UHGV virus genome: UHGV-0278671
Direction: 5' to 3' (one strand)
From: a virus
Length of the DNA: 27,730 nucleotides
The translations under genes were made by a program, and so were the position numbers. Below, one piece after another: positions 1 to 18,623 of this stretch. How positions within the stretch are numbered: the stretch's first letter is position 1; each line of letters starts with the position of its first letter. The notes under the pieces are model-generated. The model searched no databases. It was not told where the DNA came from and saw nothing but the letters and a program-made list of their open reading frames with translations.

Positions 1-89
1 CTGTGTAGTACGCCGTCTGCGTTTCTCCGGTCCTAAGACATCAATCATCTGCTCTCCAATGACTAGTCTAAAAACTAGTATTAAGACTA

Positions 90-335
90 TCACTTATTTA
101 AGTGATATTGGTTGTCTGGAGATTCATGGGGCCAGTCTACTGCTCTATCAGTTATATCTTTCCCTTCATATACTTCACCTATATTGCTAATGCTGGCAGA
201 ACATCCAAGATGCTTGTATCTTATGATGTCCAACACGCAGTCACTACACAGCATCCGACCTGTTTCTTTAGAGTAAATGTATGTTTGATCAGCGTCTGAT
301 TCGCTAATGCCGCAGAAACAACATTCTTTACTCAT
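90..335 (-). CDS. Hypothetical zinc-ribbon protein (CCFCG...CSDC), sits where P22 has the antirepressor
   Basis: 81-aa ORF; ATG overlaps the stop of the upstream Arc-like ORF (ATGA), suggesting translational coupling; four Cys in a CxxC...CxxC arrangement. Function not recognised. Confidence 0.45.
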   Translation of the reverse strand: MSKECCFCGISESDADQTYIYSKETGRMLCSDCVLDIIRYKHLGCSASISNIGEVYEGKDITDRAVDWPHESPDNQYHLNK

Positions 336-472
336 ACCGTTATCCCCTCTCTCTTCAGGCTGTCCATCACCCGTTTAATTACTTCTGCACTAAATGAGCG
401 ACACTCTTCCTTTGCTTTCTCTTCAAGGATTTTTTCTAACTTCTCTGGCATACGCAGTGTTTTTACCTTCAT
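332..472 (-). CDS. arc: Arc-like ribbon-helix-helix repressor (46 aa, below the ORF-track size cutoff)
   Basis: Translation MKVKTLRMPEKLEKILEEKAKEECRSFSAEVIKRVMDSLKREGITV resembles P22 Arc as remembered; GGAGG Shine-Dalgarno 5 nt upstream of the ATG; divergent from the Mnt-like gene. Confidence 0.55.
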   Translation of the reverse strand: MKVKTLRMPEKLEKILEEKAKEECRSFSAEVIKRVMDSLKREGITV

Positions 473-502
473 TGCATCCTCCGTTGTATGTGGTACGCAT
501 AC

Positions 503-541
503 ATAGTATTTAGGTACGTATTGATAGTCAATAGATACCTA
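503..541 (-). promoter_or_regulatory. Promoter and palindromic operator of the arc-like operon
   Basis: Minus strand: -35 TTGACT (526-531), 17-nt spacer, -10 TACTAT (503-508). Near-perfect 31-bp palindrome taggtacgtattgaTagtcaatagataccta (511-541) overlaps the -35. Confidence 0.4.
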
Positions 542-577
542 CATATCCTGTGGTAAAAAATTATTCAGGATGTGCCG

Positions 578-826
578 ATGTCTGATCGTAAGTACAAAAA
601 CCCTCAAGTGAATCTGAGGCTTCCTGTAGAGATAAAGGAACGTCTTATTGAACTGGCTGAGGCTAATTCTCGTTCATTAAATGCTGAGATGGTCGCGGCA
701 CTTGAAGCGTGGACCGAAAAAAATAAACACATTCAAGCACTAGACCTTGCAACTATAGCATCACGATTGATAGATCTTGAACACGATGTTGAGACGCTAA
801 AGACCATGTATGGTAAGGATAAATAA
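578..826 (+). CDS. mnt: Mnt-like ribbon-helix-helix repressor
   Basis: NPQVNLRLPVEIKERLIELAEANSRSLNAEMVAAL aligns with P22 Mnt (FNFRMPMEVREKLKFRAEANGRSMNSELLQIV, from memory); AGGA 7 nt before ATG 578; ORF track begins at an in-frame GTG at 572. Confidence 0.7.
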   Translation: MSDRKYKNPQVNLRLPVEIKERLIELAEANSRSLNAEMVAALEAWTEKNKHIQALDLATIASRLIDLEHDVETLKTMYGKDK

Positions 827-828
827 AT

Positions 829-1107
829 ATGACAGATACCAAAGTGAACTTCAGAGAAACCATCTTCAAGGACTCAAGTGATGCTGTAAATGAGTATGCT
901 GATGGATTTGCTTACTCGTCTTTTGGGGATGTCGGAGCAAGATTTGGTTCAATAGCATTTTTTAAGCATGTTTCAGACTGGGTTAATAATGAGGAGATTC
1001 AGCCAGTTAGATACCAAATTGCCAACATTCGCATGAGTGAAAATCAACTTCTTGAACTGGCTAAGTATATAGTTTCTCAACACGAAGAATCAAAAAAATT
1101 AAGCTGA
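829..1107 (+). CDS. Hypothetical protein (92 aa), first gene downstream of mnt-like
   Basis: ORF starts 2 nt after the mnt stop; no recognisable motif. Confidence 0.45.
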   Translation: MTDTKVNFRETIFKDSSDAVNEYADGFAYSSFGDVGARFGSIAFFKHVSDWVNNEEIQPVRYQIANIRMSENQLLELAKYIVSQHEESKKLS

Positions 1108-1297
1108 CAGAGCCATGATTACTTTTCCTGCCGTAAATGCTGATCATGCAGCGGAGAAAAAGAGAACACTTGGTCGTATGGGGTCGACAGGTGGCTTCGG
1201 AGAAAAGTCCAATGCTTCGCCTCCAGTTACCAAGAATGATATAACCAAAAACAATAATATCGCTTATCTTGGAAAACAATACACTGAGGAGCATGCT

Positions 1298-1675
1298 ATG
1301 GGCAGCCCATCAAGAGAAGAGATTGACGCGAAGCTTGGTCAAAACAAAGCAGAAATTGAGTTAATATCTGCTAACATGCGCGCTGAAATTTCAGCTTTCA
1401 GAGAATTCCAATCTAAGCAATTTACAGCTATGAATCAGTCACTTAATGAAATTAAGGGACAGATATTCGCTAGCAATGGCGAAGTTGCAGGGCTCAAAGG
1501 TCAAATTGATGGCATTAAAACATCCATGACCGCGACCCAATGGCTCGTTGGTGCGGTTCTCGCTATGCTTGCGGTAATCATAACGCTTCCGCAGATTCAA
1601 TCTTACTTCAAGGTTTCTGAGCCGACTGCGAAGGAAGCCGCTAGTGAAACCCATGATACCAAAATAAAGCAGTGA
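1298..1675 (+). CDS. Membrane-anchored coiled-coil protein (XhlA-like architecture)
   Basis: GAGGA 8 nt before ATG 1298 (ORF track extends to 1115 through low-complexity sequence); heptad-like N-terminal region then a hydrophobic helix WLVGAVLAMLAVIITLP. Confidence 0.45.
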   Translation: MGSPSREEIDAKLGQNKAEIELISANMRAEISAFREFQSKQFTAMNQSLNEIKGQIFASNGEVAGLKGQIDGIKTSMTATQWLVGAVLAMLAVIITLPQIQSYFKVSEPTAKEAASETHDTKIKQ

Positions 1676-1703
1676 TCTTACCAATAAAACCAGGGAGGAC
1701 AAC

Positions 1704-1931
1704 ATGAAGCAATGGCTCATCATAATTGCTGTTTTTTTGCTCATTTACACTATTTTCCCAGCATTAAAAGCACCAATGCAAATAATTTCACTAGCAATAA
1801 TTGCGATTAGTGCTTTCATTGCAGTAGCCGTACTTGTGTTTAAGGTTTTAAAGTTTTTAGTTTGGCTATCAAAAGATGATGGATGCAAAGTTCATCAAGA
1901 AAAAGAAGGCAAAATAACCAAAGTTGACTAA
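1704..1931 (+). CDS. Small two-transmembrane protein with charged C-terminus (holin-like topology)
   Basis: GGAGG 5 nt before ATG; two hydrophobic helices (LIIIAVFLLIYTIF and IISLAIIAISAFIAVAVLVF) followed by a KDDGCKVHQEKEGK tail. Confidence 0.5.
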   Translation: MKQWLIIIAVFLLIYTIFPALKAPMQIISLAIIAISAFIAVAVLVFKVLKFLVWLSKDDGCKVHQEKEGKITKVD

Positions 1932-4051
1932 CTGTCACTAGCGAGCCATGTAATAATCCCCGTGCGGGCAATGGTTTTTGCTTCATCTGTTGATAAGGTT
2001 TTCTCCCATCTCTTAAATGCCCCAGATTGCATCAGTTTCCTTTCTATTACGCGTCTCACTTCTGCTCTGTCTACTGGTGCGTTTTGCAGGCGAAATAGCA
2101 TTGATTTAAACTCAGGAGAAGACAGTAGAGCATCAGCAGCCTTTATCCTGCTTGTTTTCCCTGACATCAATGCGGACGTTATCACCCCTGTTGCACCTAC
2201 ACCAGGAAGACCAGATAAGCTTGTAACACCTTCCGCCGCAGCAGCTTTTGAGGCTATTCCATAAATTTTTGCTAGACTACCCTTTTCCTTCAGAAAGTTA
2301 TTAACTTGCTGATCCACAAGGCTGCTAGCATACTGCTTACCAGTATTGAGTCTATTCATAGCCTTGGCTGCTTGATAAATCGTATCAAGGCGCTTTGATG
2401 CATCTGTGCCAATAGCATCACGGAGAGCCTTCATATTGGCCCCATTGCGTGACATTCCGTTATACCATTTTACAAATCCATCAACCCCTAATTGCTGACC
2501 TGGTGATTTAGCATAGCTGGTAAATGCTTTATTCATTGAGGTGAGAGCAACTTCCTGCCGCATATCCTTTGGAATCGACTTCATTAATTGCCTAAAGTCG
2601 CCACCGTTTCCTTTTGCCATATTAACAACGGCACTTTCAACTTTTGGAATTGCTGATTGCTGAAGTTTTCTACCCAAGACGGTTACAGCATCATCTTCAA
2701 TGGATTTTCGTTTTTTTACCAACTCCTTACCAAGCGTCCATAACTCCCCTGCGCCATATTTTTCTGCGACAGCCTGTTGGTCATCTGTTATGGCTGCATA
2801 TAACTTTTTAAGAACACCTGTTTCTTCATCCTTGAATGGGCCAGAGCCTTTGCCAATAGCTTGCCCCACCTGCTTTCTAGCGAGATCTAAACGCCCATAC
2901 GTTGGCAAGGTGTTTGGATCAAGTCGGTTCAATGTCCGCTTCATTATTGGAGATAATTCATCAATTCCCCCTATGTCATCAGCAAAATCCTCTAAAAAAT
3001 TCAACGTATTAGTTGCCTCAATCCGGTCTCTTACCGGAACCTTTTCGGCAATTTTGTTGTAGATGTTATCTGACTGATTTTGTAATGATGAAATGGTTTT
3101 ATCAAAATTATCTGCAAGCCTGTCAGAAACCAGTTGCTTATCAAGGCTTCCCCCAAATGAAGTTATCATTTCATCAGCTTTTCTTCCTAATTCAGTAATA
3201 AAACGCTTATGCGCCTCACTAATCTCCGTTCCAGGAAGACTTGCCACTGCATTATCAAGAGCCCTGACAGCAGGATTATTAGAGATCATGCCTGGAGTGG
3301 CATAATTTTCCAGTTCTAGCTCACGGATGGCATTTATCGCGTTAAAATCAGGATTAACTTCATCGGCGAAACCTTGAATAGCTCGTTGCCCGCCAATAAA
3401 TTTATTATCCATTGCGCCAGCAGCTTTCTTTAACGTTGCTTTAGATGATTTACTACCCATCCCTACGGATGAGCGATAAATATCTCCGGCACTATTTTTA
3501 ATTTTTCCTGCAATCTTCCCAAGCGCTGGACCAACAATCTCTGCTACAGGGCCAGCCACAGCGCCAATAGCAGCGCCGGAAGCAACATCGCTATTTGTTC
3601 CATTGGCTACAATAGCCCCTTCTCCAGCACCAAGCCCTGCGGCGGCAGCCAGCCTTGCCGCCCCTTTCGGAACCTGAGAAATAATCCCACCACCACTAAC
3701 AAATGGCGCTGCTTGTCCAACGAACTCACCAACATCTTGTGCGGTTGATGGTTTTGCCGCTAACTTCTGCTGTAGAGACTGAATTGCGGCTTGCTCTTCT
3801 GGTGTCATATCCTGAAATAGACCAACACCTTTACCAACATCCATCAATCCACTGAGAACGCCATACATAAAACGGTCGAAACCGTTAGCATTATTAACAA
3901 CATTTTCCTGTCTGGAATTTTCCTCTGGTGAAACCAAAGGTGATTGCTGCTGCTCTGGTTGGGAATCAAGCACAAAACCATCAGGAAGCTGTGAGTTATC
4001 AGGCTGATTATCGAGAACAAATCCTTCGGGTAAACCTACATCGGTTGCCAT
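1928..4051 (-). CDS. Putative DNA injection/ejection protein (P22 gp16 position), 707 aa
   Basis: Last large gene of the late operon; N-terminal tandem LP(E/D)GFVLD(N/S)QP repeats and Ala/Gly-rich stretches; assignment is by position in the P22-like gene order. Confidence 0.5.
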
Positions 4052-5379
4052 TGTCCGTTCCTATAAATGAGTTTCTGACCAGTTTTAGGGTTCGTTGCCG
4101 TCGCGCCTTCTGATATCCCACTTGGCGCAGCTTTTGTCTGCCCATTACCACCTTGTGGTGTAGGCTGCGCTGTGACATCGTCAAATAGCTTGGCCTTCCT
4201 TCTCCCTAAGCTTTTTTTCAGCCCTTGAGGAATAGTATCTCCATACGTATCCAGATATTCGTCTACCTGCTGGTTAAACTGCTGCCCCATAGCGTTGGCG
4301 TTAATTTTGGCTGCGTTAACAATGTTATCCCTCGCTTCCTGTGACAAGCCATTCCCTGCATTAAGCTGGTCTACATATCCTTTTATCTGCCCCCATATGC
4401 CATCAGAGCGCATGACCTGAACCTGTTCACCTTCGCGAACAACTGACTGAGGGTCGAGAGACTTCATGTAATTAAAGATAATCCCAAGTTGGGCAGCGCC
4501 AGTATTTACCTTGCTAAGGGCTTGCAGAGAGTTTGCCGCCGCTCTGACAGAGTTATAATTTTTGCCAAAATTGGTAATGTCAGAATTTAATCCCTTAATT
4601 AAGTCTGCTGACGGCTTACCTTTTTGCCCCAGCTCCATTAGCTTCACCCCCATCTCATCTGAGTGCATTTGTGCCCGCTGAGCCCTGTCTAGTTGAGCGT
4701 TTTGGATATTTGCCCATCCTCTCACGTTCTCCATGTCAGCCTGACGGATGCTTTCATCCAATCGCCCTTTCTCTAGTTGGCGACCAACCATCTTATCCTG
4801 ATAATCCAGCATTTTATCAGGACCAACAGCCCCTAGCGTCATAGTAGTCAGCATGTGTGATAGCTGCTCTGGATTCTGGATACCTGTCTGAATCATCCAG
4901 TCAGCATTAGCACCAACGCGATTTAACCTGTCCTTGTTGTCAGTAATGAATTTACTGTAGGCTTCCGGTCCCTGAGAAAGAGCGACGTTAGCCCTCATGG
5001 CTAAATCGCCCATATCGTTGCGTTGCTGCTCATTAAGACCGGAAAACGCCTGTTGTGCCTGTGCAACAAACGCTGGATTTTCCTTGGCAAACTTAAATAG
5101 TCCCGATGGATCACCAGAAGCCCATGCATCAGCGTGAACCTTATTGAACGCACTAATCGCTTTCTGTTGCTGTTCCTGATTGTAAATATCAGCAACTCCA
5201 GCCAGACCACGTAACGCGGTCAGACCAACGTTATTTGCACCTGAGCGAGCCAACTCATTGTTTTCGCGGATCAGACCAAGCGTTGCGTTAATGTCGCTTG
5301 CCTTTGGCGCATTCTCATTTTGCGTACCGATGCCAGCCAGAAAACCACCAGAATTAATACCCTGTTGCCAAGTAGCCAT
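4036..5379 (-). CDS. Putative DNA injection/ejection protein (P22 gp20 position), 447 aa
   Basis: Follows the tail-needle gene; Gln/Asn/Ala-rich like internal ejection proteins; positional inference. Confidence 0.5.
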
Positions 5380-5389
5380 TGATTACCCC

Positions 5390-5764
5390 TTAAAACAGCG
5401 AACCAAGCAGACCAAGACCAGCACCGATAACCTCATCCAGCAAGTAATCAACATCGCTACGCAGTACGACTATCTTCCCTTCGGCAGTTGTTAACCTGAC
5501 CTCAAGTAGATTTATCGCTTTTGTGTTTGCGGTGATTCTTGCGTCGTGATCAGCCAGTTCGACATCCTGTTCATCGTTTTTCACCTGAGCATCGTAAGCG
5601 CCCTGACCAGCCTGATTTGCCTTCCCGGCAATTGCGCCGACATCAGCCCCCTGATTAATGACATACAGCAGGTAAGACTGGCTGAATATATTGCGTGGCA
5701 AAATTGAAGCATCAAGCCGCGTAGCCTGAACCACAACAGGTGTATTGAGATTCGAATCAGCCAT
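5390..5764 (-). CDS. Tail needle protein (P22 gp26-like), unusually short at 124 aa
   Basis: [73 protein letters not shown] matches the P22 gp26 N-terminus as remembered; start is the internal ATG at 5764 overlapping the gp10 stop. Confidence 0.6.
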
Positions 5765-6754
5765 TACTCGATCCTTATCTGGCAGCCTGACAGAGTGACA
5801 GGTGACTTCGTGATAACGCGCAATCTGAAGCCGACATTTTTCCTGATGCGCCCGACACGCTTCCACAAAACGCGCTTGTCGTAAACGAACGGTTCATTCT
5901 GCTCAATCATCTGCTCACGACCGTAATTGATGCCGTCAGTGGTTGCAGAGAGAAAAAGTCGGTCAGCATACTGCGCAACGCCAGTTGACGATTCAACTTC
6001 AAGGTCGAAAACTCTGGCGTTATCCGCTTTGAACAACGGAGTAAACAGCAGGTGTTCCTGCTGCTTGTCGTACTGGCTGCTGATATCGAACTGCAATTTC
6101 CCGGTAACAGATTCCAGCTTATCGCCGCACGTTATCTGATTGCCTTCGTAAATGAAGTCGATAGCGCGGTACACATCGTCATACAAGCCAGTTTTCAACA
6201 CACACCATTGCGGACCATTGGCGCTTGAAGATGCGTCGTACACGAGGACATGATGCGGAAGGTGGATAATCAGCAACTCATGAGCATCAAATCGCAGAGA
6301 CTCCATCACGCCATCAGCCAGTTCATCAGCAGTGTAGGAGCGGAGGATTTTCTCAATGCTCGCGCTGGCGATTGGTGACACCTGACCGGAGCCGATGATG
6401 TATACAGACGGCGCACCTGTTGCCGGATTGCTGATGAACGCATAAGAATCAGCGAATGGCGTTTTGCAGTACACGACCACTTCCGGCAACATCACCGACT
6501 TCACTTTCTCCTTTGTACAGCTTGCCGCCACACACGCGATAAACAGCACTCTGCGCCATGTTGTACTCAACTCCGCGCGATACGCCGTTCACATCAGAAC
6601 GTTTGGCAATGCCCGGGAATGAGCGAAGATATCCGCTGCTGTTCAGGATTTCTTTGGGTGTAGCCAACATATTCACTGGCAGATAGTCGATATAGTCGGC
6701 GTTTCTAAAGTCTTTGCCGACACCTTTCATAAGCGGAAGTTGCTGAATCGGCAT
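5764..6754 (-). pseudogene. P22 gp10-like tail accessory gene, disrupted by an internal deletion and frameshift
   Basis: 6449..6754 encodes a gp10-like N-terminus (MPIQQLPLMKGVGKDFRNADYIDYLPVNMLATPKE...); 5764..6570 encodes a gp10-like C-terminus from YCKTPFADSYAFISNPATGAPSVYIIGSG in another frame; junction near 6470, about 130 codons missing. Confidence 0.6.
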
Positions 6755-6763
6755 TTATTCACC

Positions 6764-7225
6764 TCACGTACTCGGATCATCTTTCTCGATGTAAAACCGA
6801 TTCCACGTAAACGCGCTTTTGTTACCACTACCGCGAGGCATATCATTTCGCCGCTCAAGTGGTGGTATTTTGGTTAAAGCGATACAGATTGTTTGATATG
6901 CACTGTCAGCAGCGGTAAGGAGAGCGTCTGACGGCTGAATGACGTTATCCATGCACACTTGCACAGCGAGTTTCAAAGCGACGCCATCATTTGCCCATGC
7001 AGGGATACCTGAATCATCGTCAGGTAACGGCATGATGCCGTTTTCTGTATCAGCAAACTGATACCCAAGCTCGATACCTTTCGCCTGCCATGCTGCCATC
7101 ATGTCTTCGAGGTCATTAATGGCATCTTCAATTGCCTGAGGGTCAGCATCTGTCAACGTGGCATTGGAATACAGCCCGGCTTTTCGTAAAGCCTTTAGAA
7201 CGAGATCACCCTTCGTTTTCGCCAT
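6764..7225 (-). CDS. Head completion/tail accessory protein (P22 gp4-like)
   Basis: MAKTKGDLVLKALRKAGLYSNATLTDADPQAIEDAINDLEDMMAAW resembles P22 gp4 as remembered. Confidence 0.7.
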   Translation of the reverse strand: MAKTKGDLVLKALRKAGLYSNATLTDADPQAIEDAINDLEDMMAAWQAKGIELGYQFADTENGIMPLPDDDSGIPAWANDGVALKLAVQVCMDNVIQPSDALLTAADSAYQTICIALTKIPPLERRNDMPRGSGNKSAFTWNRFYIEKDDPST

Positions 7226-7394
7226 CTTCTTCCGCCTTAGCCACTTTTTGCTTCGTTGCGGTTTCTTCAGGAGTTTTTACCCAACCTTTTTTCAGGTGAG
7301 ATTTAACTTCTTCGTCATCAACAATGATGTAATCGACAGCAAACTGACCACAGGTGATCATGTTGCCAGGCTTATAGAGCATTGTTCGTGCCAT
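7206..7394 (-). CDS. Small hypothetical protein (62 aa)
   Basis: GGGAG 6 nt before the internal ATG at 7394; ORF track extends to 7433. Confidence 0.35.
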   Translation of the reverse strand: MARTMLYKPGNMITCGQFAVDYIIVDDEEVKSHLKKGWVKTPEETATKQKVAKAEEDGENEG

Positions 7395-7406
7395 TATCTT
7401 CTCCCA

Positions 7407-7430
7407 ATAAAAATGGGGCCGAAGCCCCAC
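7407..7430 (-). terminator. Rho-independent terminator after the coat gene
   Basis: On the minus strand: GGGGC-UUCG-GCCCC hairpin followed by AUUUUUAUU, directly after the coat stop. Confidence 0.5.
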
Positions 7431-7435
7431 CAAAA

Positions 7436-8527
7436 TTACTGCCCGGCAATAACGATGCCCGTATATTCAGGAACAAGTACAGAGCAACCGTACAGGGTGG
7501 TGAAACGCGCAGTGGTTACACCTTTGATGTGGTCGAAGGCGTAAGACATGATCAGCGTAGCGCCCTGCTCGGTGGTTGCTGTCATTACCTGTGGACCCTG
7601 ACCAGTCGGGAACGCCAGCTTGCCGTACATCAGTTCAACAGAACCATCAGCCCAGAACAGGTTAGCCGGTGCGGCATTTTTGTTGAGAATGGTGATTGCT
7701 GCGCCACTTGCCGCATTAGCATCAACGTTTGCATATGGTCGGCTGGCGACATCCGCGTTGTCAGGCGGCAGAATTTTCGGTGAGATAGTTACTGTCGTTC
7801 CGCTTACTGCCAGAACGCGGAATACCTGCGGCTGCCCGGTGGTATCTTTGGTGATCTGGTGTACAGAATTCACCCCTGCGATGGTAAACGCATCGCCAAC
7901 CTGCAAACCTTCAGCAGATACCGTAATGGTCCCCTGTCGGTTATCCACTGGCATATCGTTAGCATCTTTGGCTTCAACCTTGTGCGCAGGTGCTGCTGCC
8001 AGCGTAATGGAAGTTGCTATACCCTTCGGAACACGACCAGAAATATCGGTCTTGTAGCTATCGAAGGACGCAACCGGAGGGATTTGCGCTTTTTCGTATG
8101 CTGTCAGGGTTGTGCCCTGAGCATAGGCACGGTGACCAAGCTCGCCAGCAAGGTCTTTGTAGTTGAAGGGGTTCCAGAAAGAGCGACGGTTGATACCCTG
8201 AGGTACACCAATCGCCGTCATGGTGGCATCAATACCTGCCGCACAGTTCCACAAATCACGGCCCTGTGAACCTGTGGTTGAGTCAGCCATCGTGATCACG
8301 TTAGTAGCACGCTGCGTAACCATGGAAATCAGGTCAGAGTCAATCTGTGCAGCAAGGCGCATACCTGCGGCGCGACCAGCTTCAGTTTTATGTTCCGGGT
8401 CACGCATTTCACGCGCATCCAGAGTGTACAGAATGTTTTTCGGCTCCTTGAACACAGAAGGAACAAGGCGCTGAACCAGTGCTGTTGGCGTTTTGCCGCT
8501 GAGGTCTAGGCCTTCCTCAATGTTCAT
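7436..8527 (-). CDS. P22-like major coat protein, probably missing its N-terminal ~50 residues
   Basis: FWNPFNYKDLAGELG, RPYANVDAN and LFWADGSVEL resemble P22 gp5 segments (from memory); the ORF begins where P22 coat residue ~55 aligns. Confidence 0.6.
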   Translation of the reverse strand: MNIEEGLDLSGKTPTALVQRLVPSVFKEPKNILYTLDAREMRDPEHKTEAGRAAGMRLAAQIDSDLISMVTQRATNVITMADSTTGSQGRDLWNCAAGIDATMTAIGVPQGINRRSFWNPFNYKDLAGELGHRAYAQGTTLTAYEKAQIPPVASFDSYKTDISGRVPKGIATSITLAAAPAHKVEAKDANDMPVDNRQGTITVSAEGLQVGDAFTIAGVNSVHQITKDTTGQPQVFRVLAVSGTTVTISPKILPPDNADVASRPYANVDANAASGAAITILNKNAAPANLFWADGSVELMYGKLAFPTGQGPQVMTATTEQGATLIMSYAFDHIKGVTTARFTTLYGCSVLVPEYTGIVIAGQ

Positions 8528-9864
8528 GTGGTAGCGACGTTGCTCGGCATGTTCTCAAGCTGCGACGCACCTGTAATTTGCTGAATAGCCGTTCCGGTGT
8601 ACTGCAATAGCCCAGCAAGAGCAGGAGGCATTTGTGTCGGAGGTGTCCAGCCAGCAACCTGAGCCTCTGAAATGACCGTTCCGTTTTTGTCCTTCTTGCT
8701 GGTCATGGGAAGAACTGCAGGTCTTTTCTTATTCCTCTCTGCCCAGTGATTCATTAATGGACCGGGAATGAAATCAACATCCACGATAGGAATGCCATCG
8801 CCGCCAGCCTGAGTAGCGTTATCTGCAATCATGGAAACCATCAGGTTCTCAAGACGCTGTGCATCCATCGCTTTTGCTGCGTGGCCTTCGATTCGCTCCT
8901 GATTATCAACAAATGAACGACGCCCATATACCGGGATGAGAGGAATATGTTCGCCCGGAATACGCTTCGGTTCTTCCAGCCATTCAGCGCCAGACAGAAG
9001 ACCGCAATAAACTCGGCGTTTCTTCACCGTTCGCTCGCCAATCAGTTCGAATGCACCATCGGTCAGCTCGTCGACAATATCTTTGATTTGCTCTTCATCA
9101 TAGATTGCCGTTTCTCCGCTGACAGGGTTACGCCATGCTGTGAGCTTTACCTTCTCTATGCGGACTTCGTAGTAGCGTCCAACATAGATGGCGTCAGGCG
9201 TTGACCAGTCATACTGAGTACCAGTGTCATCACGAGAAAGGCTTGCCGCGATGGAATCAGGGTATTCAGCCTCGAACGCTTTAGGCGTCATGGAGAACAT
9301 TTCCATAGCCCACATGGCATCAGAGCGGTCATATTGCTTGCTGTCCTGATCGAAGAAGACGCATGTCGCCGGGTCGTAAACAGGAAGAAGGCTGATGCGT
9401 CGCTGCTCGTTACTCGGATCCATTTCATCTTCGTAATCAGCGCACATGCGGAAACAACCGAATCCGCCCGTTACAGCATCATCAAATGCGTTATCACACG
9501 CTTCGCCACCGGATGTTTCCTGATAATCAGCGCGGAATTTGCCGTTCATCTTTTCGGCTAACGCTTCCGATGCCTTGTCATCCTTCGGCCTGAATTTAAC
9601 GCTGATGCGATTCTGTCGATACTCGCCAATGATGCGATCACATTCACGGGCAATCTTATTCAGTTCAAAGCGCGGGTAATGCTCAAACCTGCCTTCATCA
9701 AATGAGTAACCAGCGTTTGTGCTGCCTTCCCACTGTGCGCCGGACACCCGGACGAAACGTTGAGCCTCAATAATCTGCTTACGCATATCCTGCGTTGCTG
9801 ACCAGGCATTATCAAAGTTGCACAGCACCTTGCGATGCCAGTCAGTCATCTTTTTTTCTGCCAT
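8524..9864 (-). CDS. Portal protein (P22 gp1-like), apparently C-terminally truncated (446 aa versus ~700)
   Basis: KKRRVYCGLLSGAEWLEEPKRIPGEHIPLIPVYG matches the P22 portal IKRRRVY...AGEHIPIVPVFG region as remembered; the ORF ends where crown/barrel domains would follow and abuts the coat gene with no scaffold gene between. Confidence 0.6.
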   Translation of the reverse strand: MAEKKMTDWHRKVLCNFDNAWSATQDMRKQIIEAQRFVRVSGAQWEGSTNAGYSFDEGRFEHYPRFELNKIARECDRIIGEYRQNRISVKFRPKDDKASEALAEKMNGKFRADYQETSGGEACDNAFDDAVTGGFGCFRMCADYEDEMDPSNEQRRISLLPVYDPATCVFFDQDSKQYDRSDAMWAMEMFSMTPKAFEAEYPDSIAASLSRDDTGTQYDWSTPDAIYVGRYYEVRIEKVKLTAWRNPVSGETAIYDEEQIKDIVDELTDGAFELIGERTVKKRRVYCGLLSGAEWLEEPKRIPGEHIPLIPVYGRRSFVDNQERIEGHAAKAMDAQRLENLMVSMIADNATQAGGDGIPIVDVDFIPGPLMNHWAERNKKRPAVLPMTSKKDKNGTVISEAQVAGWTPPTQMPPALAGLLQYTGTAIQQITGASQLENMPSNVATT

Positions 9865-9865
9865 A

Positions 9866-10837
9866 TCAACCTACACCACAAGGAATTGAGTAACTGGAAT
9901 AGTCGGGTTGCGCAGCCGACTCCGGGCAATGCATACACATCATCAGCGCATCAGCCAGGTTAGGAGATGGAATACCGAGCTTCTGCTTCATTTCGACCTT
10001 AGTCATAAGCTCCAGCTTCCCGTTGTTATTGAATTTGCGCTGAATCTGCGTCAGTTCTGCAAACAGCTTCTCCAGCATCTTCTCGCCTATCGCTTCTTTG
10101 TCGAAGCTCAGCATGTCGTCTGGGTCTGCATACTCACCGTGGACAACCGCCCGATATGTCAGATACAGCCTGTCAGCCAGCGCGTAATAGAATTGCGCTC
10201 GCTTATTGCGGAACACATCGCCAATAGTGCGAACGTTGTCGCCCTGTACGACTTCATCGGCCCATGCTCCGGCCTGATATGGTGCATCTTCATCGAATGG
10301 CGATTCGCTACCCTTGAACATCGTGGCGGTGATTTTCTTGCCGGAGAACGCTTCCGTTGTCTGTCTGCGCAGCCCTGCACCGACACCATCGCCATCCCAC
10401 AGGTAATGGTCAGCGCCGTCTTCAATCGCCAGCGAAGTTGCCCAGTCAGCACCCTCGTTGATGTCCATCAGCAGACCTTCGGCAATGCGCTTAACTACCG
10501 AACCGTGACGCGATGCATAACCTTTAGCATCTGGCCCTGTATCTGACGGGTCATGTGCAGAGACAACAGCGCCTTTCGCTTTCCATCCGAGTTTCTTGTG
10601 CGCATCGGTTGCGGATTCAAGCCATTCACGTTTGATGATTGCCATATCACTTGCGCTTACTGGATCACCAAGCCAGATGTGACGATACAGTGTCGGATTT
10701 CTACGTTTACACTCTTCCATCTCCAGACGGAGAACTTCAGGAAAGTGCGGGTTCCCGGATCTACGCTCTCCATGAACTTCGCTATTACGCTGCTCATGCG
10801 CTTTTCCAGACGACCTGAATAAACCCATGCGCCCCAC
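9866..10837 (-). pseudogene. Terminase large subunit, C-terminal nuclease-domain fragment; ATPase domain absent
   Basis: Reading from about NPHFPEV... HIWLGDPV... AHDPSDTGPDAKGYA... SPNLADALMMCM looks like a terminase C-terminal domain; no Walker A region; directly upstream of portal. Confidence 0.6.
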
Positions 10838-10902
10838 AGTTCAAGCCAGCCATTCAGCCACTCATGCTGTTCTTTGGTGAGGTTTAGTTCTCTTATGCCC
10901 AC
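10657..10902 (-). pseudogene. Q: N-terminal fragment of a Q-type late antiterminator (WGAW family)
   Basis: First ~47 residues ([47 protein letters not shown]) resemble the Q82/QuuD-family N-terminus (WGAW motif); the remainder looks like read-through and overlaps the terminase fragment. Confidence 0.45.
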
Positions 10903-11564
10903 GCGCCTTCTCCCTGTACCTGAATCAATGTGAGGTTTCCGCAGAACACTGCGCCGGTATCGATATACATCTGGTTGGCAAACTTGAGTGGTTTCACTGC
11001 TGGCGTATGACCAAAGATGAACGTGTCCGCTCCTTTGATTTCTTTCACGATCCCGTCTTGTGAGTTGCTGATTCGTTCGCGGTTCCAGATTACCTGCTGA
11101 TGGTCAACTGGCTTTCCAAATTCGTATTCGTCACAAGGATAATCGGCGTGGCAGATGACATATTTTTTACCTTCGCTCACCAGTTCGATGATTAACGGAA
11201 GTTCATCTGCTTTATGGGAAAGAGCTTTAGCCAGAATTTCTTTGTCGTAATCGAGATTAAAGAACCAGCCACCGCCATTAAACAGCCAGTGATTGACGTT
11301 TCCACGCTCTGATAAGCCATCAATCATCATTTGCTCATGGTTTCCACGTACAGCTCGGAACCAGGGGAATGTGATTAATTCCAGACATTCGACGTTCTCT
11401 GTACCGCGATCGACCAAATCGCCAACCGAGATAAGCAGGTCTTTGTTGGTGTCGAATCCTATCGTCTCCAGTTTTTTCATCAGGTTCGTGTAGCATCCGT
11501 GCAGATCGCCAACTACCCAAATAGTTCGGTATTTGCTGCCATCAATTCTTTCGTAATAGCGCAT
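10893..11564 (-). CDS. ninI: Ser/Thr protein phosphatase (lambda PP / NinI)
   Basis: Near-identical to lambda phosphatase as remembered ([29 protein letters not shown]...GDLVDRG...GNHE...), ending GEGAWA; start is the internal ATG. Confidence 0.9.
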
Positions 11565-11748
11565 CTCTTTCACTCCATCCGCGATGAACCATGAGAACGT
11601 CGTTGACGATGGCGTGCATTTTCCCGTCTTTATCATCAACGTATTTTCTGACCGTACCGCGACTACATTTCAGTCTGCGTGCTACTTCTGTCTGGTTTCC
11701 GTATGCTTCAACGAGCATGTCTGGAATGGTTTTTACTGAGAACGTCAT
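11542..11748 (-). CDS. ninH: NinH
   Basis: 68 aa [37 protein letters not shown]... matches lambda NinH as remembered. Confidence 0.85.
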
Positions 11749-12356
11749 GCGGCCTCACTTCTGCTATTTCGCAGGTCTTTGAGTTTCTGTTGGTACTCTG
11801 CCTTGATCGCCTTGCACTCTTCGATAGTCCAGCGATGGCGGTTATGGTTTGATTCGATTTCGTCTACTGCTTCCTGCCCGATACGGCTAATCAGTTCGAC
11901 GCGATACGGAACGAGATTTCCGCTTTTGTGCTGGTTGCACACCACGCATTGCTTGTGAATATTGCGTTCATCAAATCGGAGTTGAGGTGCCGCAGCAGTT
12001 GTCCGGTAATGTCCGGCATCCCACTGAGCAGACGTGAGCGTTCCGCACGAGATACATGGTAAGTCGCGGTCTCTTTCTCTGATGAAGGCGTTTACGGCTT
12101 GTTGGGCTTGTTTAATCCAGTAACTGCGGGGCTTTAAGGCGAGTTTTCGAATCTTCAGTTTATCTTTCTGTTTCTGCTCCTCTCGTCGTAGTTTCTTCTC
12201 TGCTGCTTTTTCCGCTTTTTCGCGTTCTTTACTTCGTCGTTCGAGTGCTATCTTTGTTCCACACTCTGGAGAGCACCACCACTGATTAGCGAATGCAGGG
12301 TGAAACCATTCCCGACATTCACCGTTTTTACATCGTCTTCGTGCTGGTTTAGCCAT
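11745..12356 (-). CDS. ninG: NinG (Rap) recombination protein
   Basis: 203 aa [33 protein letters not shown]... matches lambda NinG as remembered. Confidence 0.9.
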
Positions 12357-12531
12357 CGTCTTCTTCCTCGTACATTGAGCTATTCGGATCGCTCATCAGT
12401 TCTGCGCAGCAGTGCTCACACACGTGAACTTCCAGCACATGCAGCTTCTGACCGCAGTTAGCGCACGTTAAAGCTCGCTCGACGCTTTCTTTCTGGTATT
12501 GAAGGGATTGGGATGGGCTAAGCATTAACAA
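12349..12531 (-). CDS. ninF: NinF
   Basis: [44 protein letters not shown] matches lambda NinF as remembered. Confidence 0.85.
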
Positions 12532-13465
12532 CCTCCATACAAACTTTCACGAATGCCGTTGCTACTTCTGCATTGATTGCGTTTCCATATCCAATAATTC
12601 GCTGATCTTGATTGCGCTTTGCCATTCTTCCCAGTGTGGACTTGCCTCGTCCCAAGCTTTTGGCAATGCCATTAACCATCGGGAATGAGCCGGGTCTAAC
12701 TGGACGATATTTTTCATCTCTACAGTAAAGCCAGTCTGCATCTCTCCAGAAGCCGTTAACCGGTAATGGGTACATAGCTTCACCGTCCCGGGAAGTTTCA
12801 AGCAGATTCTTGGGGTTCCGCTCTTGTCTTTTCCGCTGTAGCAATGCGTTGAACCTGTTGCATCGTTCGCTAAAGGAGTTTGCCATCCCGCTAGTCTCAC
12901 GCATCCAGATAGGTTCTGAATTCCCCTGCGTGTCTCTGGCTGAAAGTTGATATTTGTCGTTGGAGTAGGCCACCCAATACAATCGCTGCCTGATGTGCGG
13001 AGAACCGAAGCCCGCAGCGCAAATATCGGTACCTGCAGAGGTGTAGTTCGCACCTTCCAAGTCAGTTTGTACAAGGTCGAGCCAAGCGAGGCCGTCTGCG
13101 CTTGCAACCTGTTCGCCAATAACGATGCCAGGATTGCATTTTTCAATAAGCCAGAAGAATGCCGGCCATAAGTGCCGCTCGTCATCAACCCCTTTTCCTT
13201 TGCCTGCCGAGCTGAAAGGTTGGCATGGGCAACTTCCTGTCCAGATACTCTTGTTGTCTGGCCATCCTGCTTTTCTAAGTGCATAGCTCCAAACTCCGAT
13301 TCCTGCAAAAAAGTGGTGCTGGGTAAATCCTCGCAAATCACCTGGTGTGACATCTTCAATACTCCTTTCATCTACATACCGTCTGTCGCTGTTGTATGCA
13401 CTGCTCAGCGGCTTTTTCCACCCACGGTCTGATATTGCTGTACGGTGGGTTATTCCAGATTGCAC
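12518..13465 (-). CDS. DNA (cytosine-5)-methyltransferase-like gene, atypical; true start uncertain
   Basis: Motif I FFAGIG, motif IV GSCPCQPFSSAGK, ENV-like IVIGEQV, motif VIII PHIRQRLYWVAY, motif X-like GYGNAINAEVATAF. Only ~25 residues separate motifs I and IV; the first ~33 codons overlap the Dam fragment; a second long ORF (12562..13371) overlaps in another frame. Confidence 0.55.
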   Translation of the reverse strand: MQSGITHRTAISDRGWKKPLSSAYNSDRRYVDERSIEDVTPGDLRGFTQHHFFAGIGVWSYALRKAGWPDNKSIWTGSCPCQPFSSAGKGKGVDDERHLWPAFFWLIEKCNPGIVIGEQVASADGLAWLDLVQTDLEGANYTSAGTDICAAGFGSPHIRQRLYWVAYSNDKYQLSARDTQGNSEPIWMRETSGMANSFSERCNRFNALLQRKRQERNPKNLLETSRDGEAMYPLPVNGFWRDADWLYCRDEKYRPVRPGSFPMVNGIAKSLGRGKSTLGRMAKRNQDQRIIGYGNAINAEVATAFVKVCMEVVNA

Positions 13466-13652
13466 CGTGGCTTATCCACTCAGAATTTAGCGCGTCGTCG
13501 GCCTCAGTTAACCAGTGAGCGCACAGAGCATTTTTGTCGCTCGCTGCCGAATCCAGCCAGAATCCAAACTCAATATCCAGTGCATCAAAAAGCCAAAGCG
13601 GCGTTTGCCAGCAGTCCTTGTCGTGTGCTGGCGTATTTGATTTGATAGTCAT
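13368..13652 (-). pseudogene. Phage Dam-type N6-adenine methyltransferase, N-terminal fragment
   Basis: DKDCWQTPLWLFDALDIEFGFWLDSAAS...WNNPPYS matches the phage Dam family pattern; the ORF stops ~25 codons after NPPY; ATG overlaps the ninB stop (ATGA). Confidence 0.55.
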
Positions 13653-14089
13653 GCAGCCCGATCTCCCCATCTCGCTTTCCACTCCAGAGCCAGTCTCGCT
13701 TCGTCTGACCACTTAACGCCACGCTCTGTACCGAATGCCTGTATAAGCTCTAATAGCTCCGCAAATTCGCTTACACGCATCCTGCTGGTTGACTGGCCTA
13801 TTACCACAAAGCCATTCCCGGCAAGGTTAGGAACAACGTCCTGCTGCTTTAATGCTGCGGTAAACACACACTTCCAGCTTTCTGCATCCAGCCAACGCCC
13901 ATGCCATTCAACCTGACGAGAGACGTCACCAAGGCAAGCCCAAAGCTTTCGATTCTGGTCTAAGCTGCGGTTGCGCTCCTGAATGATCACTACGATTGGC
14001 TTGGTTGGGTCTGGAAGGATTTGCTGTACCGCGTGAATAGCGTTTTGCTGATGTGCCGGAGATCGAATTTCAAAGGTTAGTTTTTTCAT
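13649..14089 (-). CDS. ninB: NinB recombination protein
   Basis: 146 aa from the internal ATG (MKKLTFEIRSPAHQQNAIHAVQQILPDPTKPIVV...), near-identical to lambda NinB as remembered. Confidence 0.9.
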   Translation of the reverse strand: MKKLTFEIRSPAHQQNAIHAVQQILPDPTKPIVVIIQERNRSLDQNRKLWACLGDVSRQVEWHGRWLDAESWKCVFTAALKQQDVVPNLAGNGFVVIGQSTSRMRVSEFAELLELIQAFGTERGVKWSDEARLALEWKARWGDRAA

Positions 14090-14166
14090 GACTTCCCTCT
14101 CCCCCAAATAAAAAGGCCTGCGATTACCAGCAGGCCTGTTACAAGCTCAGTGATGTAGATGGTCAT

Positions 14167-16047
14167 TTAATACTCCGTCACGTTTTCCTGTCGCCACGCC
14201 TCGTCATATTCCGATTTCGGCATATTGGCGATGTAGCTATAAGGCGATCCTGATTCAAGTTGCAGGAACTGGTGCGATTGCTCGTCAAGGAACAACGGGA
14301 CACCACCTTCCCAACCTTCGCCGTTACGTTGTTTTTCAAGCATCAAAACAGATGCCGGAGATGCCAGTAGCTGTTCGTCCTTCTCTGACATCTTTTCACC
14401 ACTCTGAACTCTCTGTAACGCTCTCTCGCGAGCCTTGTTACGCCAGATGATAAAAAGGTTGTCTGTCAGGTCTGTTATCGCTCCAGAGCCTTTTACGTCC
14501 ATTTTCCCGGTTGGTTTTTCTTCGCTATCTCCTTTTCTGGAGTGAGTAACGAGAATGACGTGGGAGTTTGTTTTGTTTTTGAAGTCACAAATCGAGTCAA
14601 CAAATGCTTTCTGCCCGTTATAGTCATCGTCACCTATGCCGCATTTCATCAGGCTGTCGATGATGAATAACTGGATGCCGTATCGGCGGCGAGCGTAGTC
14701 GAATATTTCGATCAGCCTGTCGGCTTTCGCCGTTCCAGTCAGGCCAAACACCCAAAGTCTTTCGTCATAAAATTTAAATGCAGAGTCAATTTCCAGCACT
14801 GGCGGCATCTTGCAGCACGTCGCCTGACGGGTAAGGCGCTTAAGGAGAATACCAGGCTTCAGCTCAAGTGACGCGATGCACGTCTTCACACCCTGACGCA
14901 TTGCCTCAAGTGCCATATGCCCGACAACCTCCGTTTTTCCGTGACCGTTCACACCATTGACCAGCGTCAACTCGGCCTCACGAAACTGGAATTTATCTGC
15001 CAGAGATTCCCACGGTGGATTAAACAGATACTGCTGCTTGCCGTAGAAAGCGTTGATAGTGTCCTGGTAAAACTCTCGCGCGCTGTAGAGTTCTTCAGGA
15101 TCAAAGTAGGATGCCGTGCCGATGTACTGCCAGATTTCATCCTCGGTAACACCGTTCATCAGGCATTCGTTGATGTCTTTGTACGGCAGAGTAACAAGAC
15201 GGCAACGATGTTCACCGAGTCGGCTTGCGATTTCCCTTGCGGCTTCACGACCAACATCATCAACGTCCATCGAGATGAATATTTCCTCAAACCTGTCGAG
15301 GTTGTGGTACTCAAACTCAATCCACTGTTGCTTAGCGCCTTTCCCTCCACCAAACGGCACGGATAACGCCGAGATGCCGTATTGCGCATAGCTCATACAA
15401 TCAATTTCGCCTTCGCAAAGTACAACCGCCCTCACGCCAGCGTCCAGAGCCTGCCATCCGAACAGACAAGGTTCGCAATCACCTTCTGCCATAATGACTT
15501 TCTTCCCGTCCGGGCGCTCAGTGCTGATTCGCTTGACCTGCAACAACTCACCATCGCGTTTGTACGGAAGCACCAGTGCATCAAGTTCTCGTTCTCCATT
15601 CCACACCTTGCCGCTGACAACCTCGTAGCGCTTTACGACTTCTGGCGATATGCCACGCGATTGCAGGTACTCAAGATGGGATTCTGTTCTGGTAACGTAG
15701 CGGGCGATTTTCTTGCGATCAGGTCTGGAGAATTTTTTCTCACGTTTGGCATCGAAATGGTGATCGTCATCCTTGATACCGAGAAATGCTTTCGCTTCCT
15801 GCATAGCCTGATGCAGGTTAATTCCACGACATGCCATCCACAAATCAAGCATGTCACCGCCGTCTCCCTCAGCGAAATCAGCCCATTTTTTCTTGCCGCT
15901 AAGGTTGACCTTAAGGCTGTTTCCCTTGTCACCATTGACGTTACCGGCAACCCACTCATGCCCCTCTTTCTTGCCGTTTGGCAACAGGTGCGGAGCCACC
16001 CTGTCAACCTGCGCCCAAAGCAGGTCGCTAAGTTCACTTGGCGTCAT
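14167..16047 (-). CDS. Bifunctional DNA primase/helicase
   Basis: 626 aa; Toprim-like acidic motifs (VVLCEGEIDCMS, ISMDVDDVG) followed by Walker A GVNGHGKT and Walker B-like LFIIDSLMK; directly downstream of the initiator gene. Confidence 0.8.
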   Translation of the reverse strand: MTPSELSDLLWAQVDRVAPHLLPNGKKEGHEWVAGNVNGDKGNSLKVNLSGKKKWADFAEGDGGDMLDLWMACRGINLHQAMQEAKAFLGIKDDDHHFDAKREKKFSRPDRKKIARYVTRTESHLEYLQSRGISPEVVKRYEVVSGKVWNGERELDALVLPYKRDGELLQVKRISTERPDGKKVIMAEGDCEPCLFGWQALDAGVRAVVLCEGEIDCMSYAQYGISALSVPFGGGKGAKQQWIEFEYHNLDRFEEIFISMDVDDVGREAAREIASRLGEHRCRLVTLPYKDINECLMNGVTEDEIWQYIGTASYFDPEELYSAREFYQDTINAFYGKQQYLFNPPWESLADKFQFREAELTLVNGVNGHGKTEVVGHMALEAMRQGVKTCIASLELKPGILLKRLTRQATCCKMPPVLEIDSAFKFYDERLWVFGLTGTAKADRLIEIFDYARRRYGIQLFIIDSLMKCGIGDDDYNGQKAFVDSICDFKNKTNSHVILVTHSRKGDSEEKPTGKMDVKGSGAITDLTDNLFIIWRNKARERALQRVQSGEKMSEKDEQLLASPASVLMLEKQRNGEGWEGGVPLFLDEQSHQFLQLESGSPYSYIANMPKSEYDEAWRQENVTEY

Positions 16048-17889: not shown

Positions 17890-18606
17890 ATGGAAAATAA
17901 AAAATCACTGACGACAGAACAGCTCGAAGACGCTAAGCGGCTTAAGGCTTTGTATGAGTCAAAAAAGAAAGAATTGGGGATAACCCAATACTCAATCGCT
18001 GATGAACTGGGTATCACCCAAGGAGCGGTAGGGCATTATCTTAATGGCAGAAACGCGCTAAACGTTGAGGTTGCATCTGGTTTTGCACGACTGTTGCAAG
18101 TCTCAATTGCTGATTTTAGCCAGTCAATTGCTGCCAAGGTTGCAGAACAGGCAGAAAGCCTTAAGAGCGATGCCAACGTAAGGTATGCAGGGGAATACAG
18201 AGCAGGAAAGAGGTATCCGGTGTTAAGCAGTATCCAGGCTGGCTCGTGGTGTGAAGCATGCGAACCATACACCATTAAAGACATAGATGTTTGGCTTGAG
18301 TCTGACGCGCATATTCAAGGTAATGCGTTCTGGCTTAAAGTGGAAGGTGATTCAATGACGGCACCGGTTGGGTTAAGCATTCCAGAGGGAACATTCGTTC
18401 TTTTCGATACCGGAAGGGAGGCGATCAACGGCAGCTTGGTCATAGCAAAACTTTCTGACTCTAACGAAGCAACATTCAAGAAGCTGATAATCGACGGCGG
18501 AAATAAATACCTTAAGGGACTTAATCCTGCATGGCCTCTCGTGCCAATCAATGGAAACTGCAAGATTATAGGCGTTGCAATTGAGACAAAACTAAGGCTG
18601 GTTTGA
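17890..18606 (+). CDS. cI: CI repressor (HTH plus LexA-like self-cleaving C-terminal domain)
   Basis: N-terminus LTTEQLEDAKRLKALYESKKKELGITQ and HTH; C-terminal FWLKVEGDSMTAP...FKKLI matches lambda CI FWLEVEGNSMTAP...FKKLI (catalytic Ser/Lys context). Confidence 0.9.
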   Translation: MENKKSLTTEQLEDAKRLKALYESKKKELGITQYSIADELGITQGAVGHYLNGRNALNVEVASGFARLLQVSIADFSQSIAAKVAEQAESLKSDANVRYAGEYRAGKRYPVLSSIQAGSWCEACEPYTIKDIDVWLESDAHIQGNAFWLKVEGDSMTAPVGLSIPEGTFVLFDTGREAINGSLVIAKLSDSNEATFKKLIIDGGNKYLKGLNPAWPLVPINGNCKIIGVAIETKLRLV

Positions 18607-18623
18607 TCACGCAAGGGGCGATT

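Follow-up and report, generated by a model that had tools for sequence, protein, structure and literature searches.

Phages lambda and HK022 carry the anti-phage genes rexAB and nun, respectively, in the slot directly downstream of the repressor gene cI. In the immI region of phage P22, the genes of two ribbon–helix–helix (RHH) repressors, mnt and arc, diverge from overlapping promoters (Pmnt and Pant) with operators; mnt is followed by orf59a and a terminator, and sieA, which has its own promoter, lies between mnt and gene 16. From this position SieA blocks DNA delivery via gp16/gp20, and sieA is found in only 22 of 66 P22-like phages (PMC10883804). Here, we analyze the immI locus of the UHGV virus genome UHGV-0278671, contained in a stretch of 27,730 nucleotides (the window), in which three genes, orf92, orf186, and orf75, extend the mnt operon. 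Judged by comparison with related prophages, the region is built of three mosaic blocks and its mnt-side cargo of two separable modules: orf92 and orf186 form a conserved two-gene cassette, separable from orf75. The most likely role of this cargo would be phage exclusion or abortive infection, exerted by genes expressed in the lysogen.

The immI locus and its gene map

The window is part of a P22-like (Lederbergvirus, CUS-3/HK620-type) Escherichia coli prophage, and the locus is the genuine immI region of this decayed, IS2-hit prophage. Over positions 140–2000, the sequence is the same as that of E. coli AST240 (100% identity), and eight further complete genomes match it at about 99%. The order of genes corresponds to the reversed P22 map (tailspike/ant side, arc, mnt, cargo, gene 16), and the gene 16-type gene marks the boundary of the virion gene cluster, in synteny with P22 genes 20 to 16. 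With gp16 in the window and the tailspike gene past ant in the relatives, the locus takes the P22-type position between gene 16 and tailspike gene 9. The features of the region are the following:

1–139, minus strand: left end of IS2, whose terminal inverted repeat abuts position 139; the element extends past the window start
90–335, minus strand: open reading frame (ORF) as it stands in the window, 81 aa, including 16 codons of IS2 read-on
140–335, minus strand: native part (codons 1–65) of a 67-aa four-cysteine ORF (orf67), truncated by IS2 (phrog_7150, E 9e-49 over residues 1–65)
332–472, minus strand: arc-like RHH repressor gene, 46 aa (Pfam Arc, E 2.9e-9, above cut-off)
473–577: arc–mnt intergenic control region, with consensus promoter-like sites and candidate operator repeats
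572 or 578–826, plus strand: mnt-like repressor gene, 84 aa from GTG 572 or 82 aa from ATG 578 (Pfam Arc, E 3.2e-10)
829–1107, plus strand: orf92, predicted small soluble partner protein, 92 aa (AlphaFold2 model)
1115–1675, plus strand: orf186, predicted tail-anchored coiled-coil membrane protein, 186 aa (phrog_5820, E 8e-97)
1704–1931, plus strand: orf75, small protein with two predicted transmembrane (TM) spans, 75 aa (phrog_7294, E 3e-49)
1928–4051, minus strand: gene 16-type ejection (DNA transfer) protein, 707 aa (phrog_6704, E 0; phrog_770 'DNA transfer protein', E 2e-26)

The locus shares with P22 immI the divergent RHH repressors, the overlapping promoter-like sites, the operator-like repeats, and gene 16 as a neighbor, and its relatives have ant and the tailspike gene downstream of arc. 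It differs from P22 in the additional orf67 between arc and ant, in the three genes added to the mnt operon, in the absence of sieA, and in the interruption of the arc operon by IS2.

The six ORFs from 90 to 1931 that the original prediction had listed were all recovered with the same coordinates. Its description of divergent Arc-like and Mnt-like genes in an immI locus likewise holds, both by Pfam Arc matches and by the identities to the P22 proteins given below. The genes on the mnt side are tightly packed, with gaps of 2 nt (mnt–orf92), 7 nt (orf92–orf186), and 28 nt (orf186–orf75). Overlaps of 4 nt are found between the arc stop and the start of the four-cysteine ORF, and between the 3′ ends of orf75 and the gp16 gene. 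The tight spacing claimed earlier is thus real, and the claimed start/stop overlap occurs at arc and the four-cysteine ORF only, not among the mnt-side genes. A simple terminator scan detected no terminator-like site from mnt to the end of orf75, and the window contains no Rfam match and no tRNA. The cargo ORFs are real genes, because all of them have conserved homologues (PHROGs 4231, 5820, 7294, and 7150). None of the cargo has an assigned function in Pfam (above threshold), NCBIfam, PADLOC, or PHROGs, in agreement with the original prediction.

A two-gene cassette behind different repressors

Homologues of orf92 are present in Serratia, Klebsiella, Enterobacter, Citrobacter, and Morganella (55–86% identity) and in Yersinia (38%). 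In every context examined, the gene next after the orf92 homologue encodes a coiled-coil protein whose N-terminus is disordered and whose TM span is C-terminal. These contexts are E. coli P22-like prophages with a different, P22-type mnt, Morganella P22-like prophages, a Yersinia lambdoid prophage, where the pair lies downstream of cI, and the tail region of a Klebsiella siphovirus-type prophage, where it forms a stand-alone moron. The pair is found without orf75 in lambdoid and Klebsiella prophages.

Homologues of orf186 in sequenced phages (35–39% identity, E about 1e-20) include HK97 gp48 and proteins of HK542/HK244, HK225, and Klebsiella phage ST15-VIM1phi2.1; the HK542 protein has 206 aa and that of the Klebsiella phage 182 aa. 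The relationship of HK97 gp48 to the orf186 core is one of true homology (37% identity, E 2e-20), and gp49–gp48 show the same order and the same linkage to a repressor. The gene order in HK97 is cI–gp49–gp48. All three loci inspected (HK97, HK542, and the Klebsiella phage) have the cassette directly downstream of cI, and in each the small gene precedes the coiled-coil gene, with its stop overlapping the start of the latter; this arrangement of a small partner followed by a coiled-coil/TM protein characterizes the HK97-type pairs, including those of HK244 and HK225. The HK97 cassette differs from the one described here in that gp49 matches orf92 only at a BLAST E value of 0.1, the N-terminal segment of the coiled-coil protein is different, and the repressor is CI, not Mnt.

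The site of the orf186-family cassettes in HK97 and related lambdoid phages is exactly the slot of lambda rexAB. Like RexA and RexB, the cassette comprises one soluble and one membrane protein encoded directly behind the maintenance repressor, and, read from the gene arrangement, a RexAB-type order and spacing fits in 38 loci. The proteins themselves differ: RexB is a polytopic membrane protein and orf186 a predicted coiled coil with a single C-terminal membrane anchor, RexA is three times the size of the partner, and no match in Pfam, NCBIfam, or PADLOC relates the cargo to RexA or RexB.

The family is small. A word-indexed search for orf186 returned only 10 clusters. With a full profile search of 1.84 billion representatives, the number was 185 at E ≤ 1e-3 and 89 at the stricter E ≤ 1e-10. 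A motif-based scan of species-representative genomes, which gives a lower bound, yielded at least 5 loci, all in Enterobacterales. In 38 of 38 loci collected from IMG/VR, genomes, and phage records, a co-oriented ORF of 92–147 aa ends at or overlaps the start of the coiled-coil gene. Among the 20 distinct genes upstream of the pair, about 19 are of repressor type; 5 are Arc/Mnt RHH genes and 11 match HTH_3, 9 of them together with Peptidase_S24, and Phage_CI_repr matched 4. In two loci (L016 and L036), the cassette stands away from any repressor as a stand-alone moron.

The partners fall into at least four groups: an orf92-type (joined to a 101-aa type), a gp49-type, a 144-aa type, and a zinc-ribbon type. 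A single superfamily for all partners was considered and appears doubtful: orf92-type and 101-aa/gp49-type partners match with an hhalign probability of 25%, and the 144-aa and zinc-ribbon types are clearly different. The coiled-coil/TM cores are similar in 299 of 300 pairs of loci, and similarity between N-terminal segments is confined to pairs of loci with similar partners (33 pairs versus 0). The partner and the N-terminus are therefore exchanged as a unit around a conserved effector.

As far as our searches reached, the repressor-linked two-gene cassette common to P22-like immI and the HK97 rex slot is new, as is its modular architecture. The immI scaffold was already known, and the cargo families appear in PHROGs under 'unknown function', with no name given to them in the searched literature.

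Structure of the cassette proteins

The AlphaFold2 model of orf92 (predicted local distance difference test score, pLDDT, 73) has three long β-strands and a C-terminal helix, with a disordered N-terminus. In orf186, residues 1–65 are variable and poorly predicted, with a short helix at residues 5–20 and the rest disordered. Residues 67–157 are modeled as a single continuous helix with block-mean pLDDT values of about 70–94, highest at residues 71–120. This helix runs into the only hydrophobic span of the protein, a TM segment at residues 143–161 (nucleotides 1541–1597), which is followed by a tail of 25 aa. The membrane-anchored coiled-coil protein of the original prediction is thus confirmed by TM prediction. 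With no signal sequence, orf186 is expected to be tail-anchored, with the coiled coil in the cytoplasm.

An alignment of the family shows a conserved core, SREEIDAKL..NKAE ... NGE..GLKGQIDG.KT ... TM, and a variable N-terminus. The general pattern of the family, SREE[IL]DAKL...NKAE...NGE..GLKG.IDG.K..TM with a small upstream partner adjoining, is present in orf186. At the start of the core, an in-frame ATG at position 1298 (M62) has GAGGAG 6 nt upstream, and the start at 1115 has a weak Shine–Dalgarno sequence; a short isoform of orf186 starting at M62 is possible on this basis. A conserved internal start was discarded, the methionine not being kept in the homologues of HK542, the Klebsiella phage, and loci L029 and L031.

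The overall architecture of orf186 resembles that of the Pfam families CCDC90-like/DUF1640 (PF07798) and XhlA (PF10779), and some RefSeq copies are annotated as 'CCDC90 family protein'. The match to PF07798, which covers its C-terminal part, has a score of 21.5 bits, below the gathering threshold of 33.5. Ten further members of the family were scanned: six match PF07798 at 20.5–31.2 bits, all below the threshold, and four do not match. No match to XhlA was found, and the orf186 family has its own motifs.

The predicted periplasmic tails of some orf186 homologues end in (Pro-Ala)n tracts, in loci L031–L034 (about 4330–4414) and also in L028 and L036. The length of the tract varies among otherwise near-identical genes (201, 203, 205, and 207 aa), which suggests repeat slippage in a spacer-like tail.

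orf75 and the sieA slot

orf75 is convergent with the gp16 gene and occupies the sieA slot. Hydropathy analysis supports the two TM spans of the original prediction and places them at residues 5–23 and 27–45; a charged C-terminal tail follows. Phages EC.P3 and E212 and many E. coli prophages resemble the window at the DNA level from exactly the orf75 ATG onward, into gp16. This gp16 3′ end is found in 45 E. coli genomes, 34 of which carry orf75 and 9 of which carry orf92–orf186 as well; all three cargo genes together occur in these 9 genomes and in 6 IMG/VR contigs. The family of orf75 is narrow, with all homologues at least 85% identical and restricted to E. coli and Salmonella, and it tracks with the 707-aa type of gp16. 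Elsewhere in P22-like prophages the same slot holds other genes, namely HkcB (TM span plus coiled coil) in CUS-3 and proteins of 76 and 113 aa in Morganella.

Like P22 SieA, orf75 is a small predicted inner-membrane protein encoded between mnt and gene 16 and convergent with gene 16. SieA has 164 aa and several predicted TM helices (PMC10883804), in contrast to the 75 aa and two spans of orf75. In P22, sieA has its own promoter, and in the window orf75 has no separate upstream region for one. orf75 lacks sequence similarity to SieA, for which types A–C are described, and also the conserved SieA motif FxRYPxEAxxFNK (PMC10883804). BLASTP of orf92, orf186, and orf75 against P22 SieA gave no match at E ≤ 10, and inspection showed the motif to be absent from all three proteins. 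Nor do the cargo proteins show homology to P22 orf59a or to the HkcB, 199-aa, and 139-aa proteins of CUS-3. Superinfection exclusion from the sieA position, one of the roles suggested originally, is a reasonable reading, given a 75-aa gene placed exactly in the slot. The description of the protein as 'holin-like' is borne out in size and topology only; no holin family matches it.

Six distinct orf75 alleles (that of the window and those of L004, L010, L018, L020, and L022) differ by up to 7 non-synonymous versus 1 synonymous changes, those in the TM spans being mostly conservative; the changes are too few for a ratio of non-synonymous to synonymous rates. In the C-terminal 30 residues, only one position varies among the six (E68Q, in one allele).

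Arc and Mnt repressors and their control region

The 46-aa protein has a Pfam Arc score of 37 bits and the 84-aa protein one of 40 bits (gathering cut-off 20.4). The former is 38% identical to P22 Arc over nearly its full length, and its RefSeq relatives are annotated as Arc family. The latter, composed of an RHH domain and a C-terminal helix, aligns with P22 Mnt across 79 residues at 32% identity (E 1e-10), and the mnt gene of the window is 95% identical to CUS-3 mnt.

Between the two genes, promoter-like sites identified by consensus match lie back to back, with a −35 box at 521–526 and a −10 box at 544–549 on the plus strand, and a −35 box at 531–526 and a −10 box at 508–503 on the minus strand. 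An inverted repeat with arms of 18 nt (507–524/528–545) spans both −35 boxes and is a candidate operator, as are two tandem repeats of 21 nt (492–533). The layout resembles the overlapping Pant/Pmnt promoters and operators annotated in P22, here as consensus matches only. The arc–ant junction, which is the expected place of the sar antisense RNA, is disrupted, and the window has no Rfam match.

In CUS-3 (L001), two tandem mnt-like genes are found at 5433–5968, one 95% identical to that of the window and the other of P22 type. The CUS-3 cargo between mnt and gp16 is wholly different and comprises 199-aa, 139-aa, and HkcB proteins. The best PHROGs of the Mnt-like protein (phrog_795 and phrog_2685) are labeled 'partition protein ATPase', as is P22 mnt in RefSeq; on an RHH repressor, this label looks like a propagated misannotation.

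IS2 and the arc side of the locus

Positions 1–139 of the window match IS2 copies from numerous phage and E. coli records at 96–99% identity. Aligning the window with AST240 and CUS-3 maps the junction to 139/140, which is 7 nt short of the stop codon of the native 67-aa ORF. The same junction was found in none of 5426 complete E. coli genomes. The '81-aa zinc-ribbon protein' of the original prediction is consequently a fusion product, with residues 1–65 from the native ORF and 16 residues encoded by IS2. In the IS2-free relatives (AST240, 90-9280, and CUS-3), the order is arc, orf67, ant, and tailspike gene. ant is present in all IS2-free relatives examined and is not present inside the window, where IS2 and the window edge intervene at 139/140. 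The proposal that the Arc-like gene is coupled to a zinc-ribbon gene rather than ant is thus an artifact, because IS2 and the window edge interrupt the native arc–orf67–ant order. A replacement of Ant by the zinc-ribbon protein is rejected by the mapped junction together with ant in the relatives. IS2 separates arc–orf67 from any remaining ant and tailspike gene.

The cysteines of orf67 follow the pattern C5/C6-x-C8 ... C30-x2-C33. The intact 67-aa ORF is present in CUS-3 and in loci L021 and L023, and its position between arc and ant is conserved (phrog_7150; CUS-3 (L001), 4993–5196; L003, about 5993–6196). It is not annotated by PGAP/RefSeq, and in the CUS-3 record it lies inside a 'bsq2 boundary sequence' feature. 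orf67 has no Pfam match, and a phmmer search of the PDB gave weak matches to RING/treble-clef four-cysteine proteins (E 0.005 summed, about 2 per domain). A ClpX-type zinc-binding domain was considered and dropped, as it found no Pfam match.

Proposed function and alternatives

In other phages the slot next to gene 16 holds sieA and the slot behind cI holds rexAB or nun, and we therefore favor an anti-phage role for genes expressed in the lysogen. In the proposed mechanism, an mnt transcript expressed in the lysogen, with no detectable terminator, would run through two independent mosaic modules. The cassette, directly behind the prophage repressor (Mnt in P22-like, CI in HK97-like lambdoid prophages), would thereby be expressed in lysogens. 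orf92 would bind the variable N-terminal segment of orf186, and the two proteins would assemble into a complex at the inner membrane, on its cytoplasmic side. The cassette might then act as a Rex-like sensor (the partner) and membrane effector, leading to abortive infection or an entry block; a variable partner, a co-exchanged N-terminus, and a conserved membrane effector suit such a sensor–effector design. orf75 could be a minimal SieA-like block of DNA delivery through the gp16/gp20 conduit. By analogy with the known occupants of these slots, both modules may act in the lysogen against superinfecting phages. That the locus encodes two independent membrane modules expressed in the lysogen, a Rex-like cassette at the cytoplasmic face of the inner membrane and orf75 as a minimal SieA-like injection blocker, has in our judgment an even chance of being correct.

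A wider reading is tentative, and we consider it possible but doubtful. The orf186-family cassette (orf92/orf186, HK97 gp49/gp48) would represent an unrecognized two-component anti-phage family in Enterobacterales prophages, in which a conserved tail-anchored coiled-coil effector is combined, via a co-exchanged N-terminal docking segment, with a swappable small sensor. Placed in a CI or Mnt operon, it would be a functional analog of RexAB that employs a wholly different effector. For orf75, this reading implies a SieA-like injection blocker of a fourth, minimal kind, paired with one type of gp16.

Several points weigh against these proposals. PADLOC gives no match for the cargo, and neither the searched literature nor the DefensePredictor supplements contain the cargo accessions; the literature searched on HK97 gp48/gp49, on DUF1640 in phages, and on rex-slot hotspots held nothing relevant. 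The orf92-type and 101-aa-type partners are joined in BLAST single linkage through one bridging sequence only, and the hhalign comparison of orf92-type with 101-aa/gp49-type partners is collinear and weak, at the probability of 25% given above. The co-variation of partner and N-terminus could reflect linkage of adjacent DNA, not protein contact. Similarly, co-inheritance of orf75 and gp16 could be mere linkage, and constraint on orf75 is poorly documented, because substitutions are few and mostly non-synonymous. Transcription from Pmnt through the cargo is proposed from gene spacing and a simple terminator scan. Finally, the predicted location of the orf186 coiled coil is the cytoplasm, not the side from which a block of a periplasmic conduit would most readily be expected.

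The main alternatives are a conversion of host physiology and a regulatory role within the phage itself. Lysogenic conversion unrelated to defense, such as envelope stress tolerance, stationary-phase survival (as for tail-anchored proteins of the ElaB/YqjD type), or within-host fitness, is unlikely. Placement in a repressor operon would equally lead to expression in the lysogen, and the tail-anchored coiled-coil architecture may be similar to that of host stress proteins. In addition, transcription of immI-side genes is strong in lysogens of the P22-like prophage Gally inside macrophages, where these genes are induced (PMC9928086); this observation counts in favor of the anti-phage proposal as well. 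On the other hand, restriction to prophages and the fast modular swapping of partner and N-terminus around a conserved core are more typical of genes in phage–phage conflict, and no domain points to metabolism or virulence.

A phage-intrinsic role, in the lysis–lysogeny switch, in induction, or in the phage's own DNA injection, would explain the linkage to repressors, which is near-universal and extends across unrelated repressor families; the link of orf75 to one type of ejection protein also fits. We nevertheless regard it as quite unlikely. Most P22-like and lambdoid phages lack these genes, the full set is found in 9 of 5426 E. coli genomes, the orf186 family comprises only the 185 clusters reported above, and the cassette also exists as a stand-alone moron off repressors. 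This sparse distribution and the stand-alone morons are signs of an accessory, not a core, function.

The original prediction saw the locus as a single accessory system under Arc/Mnt control, with the zinc-ribbon protein replacing Ant and the 92-, 186-, and 75-aa proteins forming one functional unit. The tight spacing, the common orientation, and the lack of a predicted terminator speak for such a unit, as does the co-occurrence of the three genes in 9 genomes of E. coli and 6 contigs of IMG/VR. Yet ant follows the zinc-ribbon ORF in every IS2-free relative, orf75 is present in 34 genomes compared with 9 for the full set, homology breaks exactly at its ATG, and orf75 is missing where orf92/orf186 lie behind cI or form the moron in the Klebsiella tail region. 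Comparative anatomy appears to have largely refuted the single unit in favor of mosaic blocks, and we consider it very unlikely.

A relic or auxiliary lysis module, with orf75 as a class II holin or pinholin-like protein and orf186 as an XhlA-like holin accessory or antiholin, is the least probable reading of all: the small size, two TM spans, and charged C-terminus of orf75 are generic holin features, orf186 has the XhlA/DUF1640 architecture with weak CCDC90-like matches, and another prophage has a gene annotated as 'hemolysin XhlA family' at this position, but no holin, XhlA, or endolysin family matches the proteins, no endolysin lies nearby, the genes belong to a repressor operon opposite to the late operon, and the reading is disfavored because the intact AST240 prophage has its lysis cassette elsewhere (lambda-family holin, GH24 endolysin (lysozyme), and Rz-type genes after Q) and the HK97-type homologues of the cassette are located behind cI, not in lysis regions.

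Other features of the prophage

Positions 4000–14200 of the window are heavily decayed, and these 10.2 kb correspond, in 7 aligned pieces, to about 19.1 kb in the intact prophage of AST240. Truncated ORFs in this part include those of the needle, gp10, coat, portal, and large terminase proteins; the immI cargo is intact all the same. None of gp7, gp14, the lysis genes, or Q was seen among the ORFs scanned.

A C2/CI-type repressor gene (17890–18606, plus strand) overlaps by 4 nt with the ORF downstream, which has 129 aa and an unknown function (phrog_6534), the two lying within 17890–18992. Together they constitute a second case of cargo attached to a repressor in the same prophage. AST240 has a 122-aa hypothetical gene at the same place.

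Implications

Few phage genes are expressed in every lysogen, and those located behind prophage repressors belong to this set. Where occupants of such slots have been characterized, as for RexAB of lambda, Nun of HK022, and SieA of P22, they counteract other phages. Should the modules have no phage phenotype, the finding would be one of ordinary mosaic moron cargo in a decayed prophage. The comparison presented here links an unstudied cassette of HK97 (genes 48 and 49), in which the effector is conserved and the partner varies, to the P22-like immI region. Roughly two-thirds of P22-like phages lack sieA, and in one lineage among them orf75 may fill the slot.

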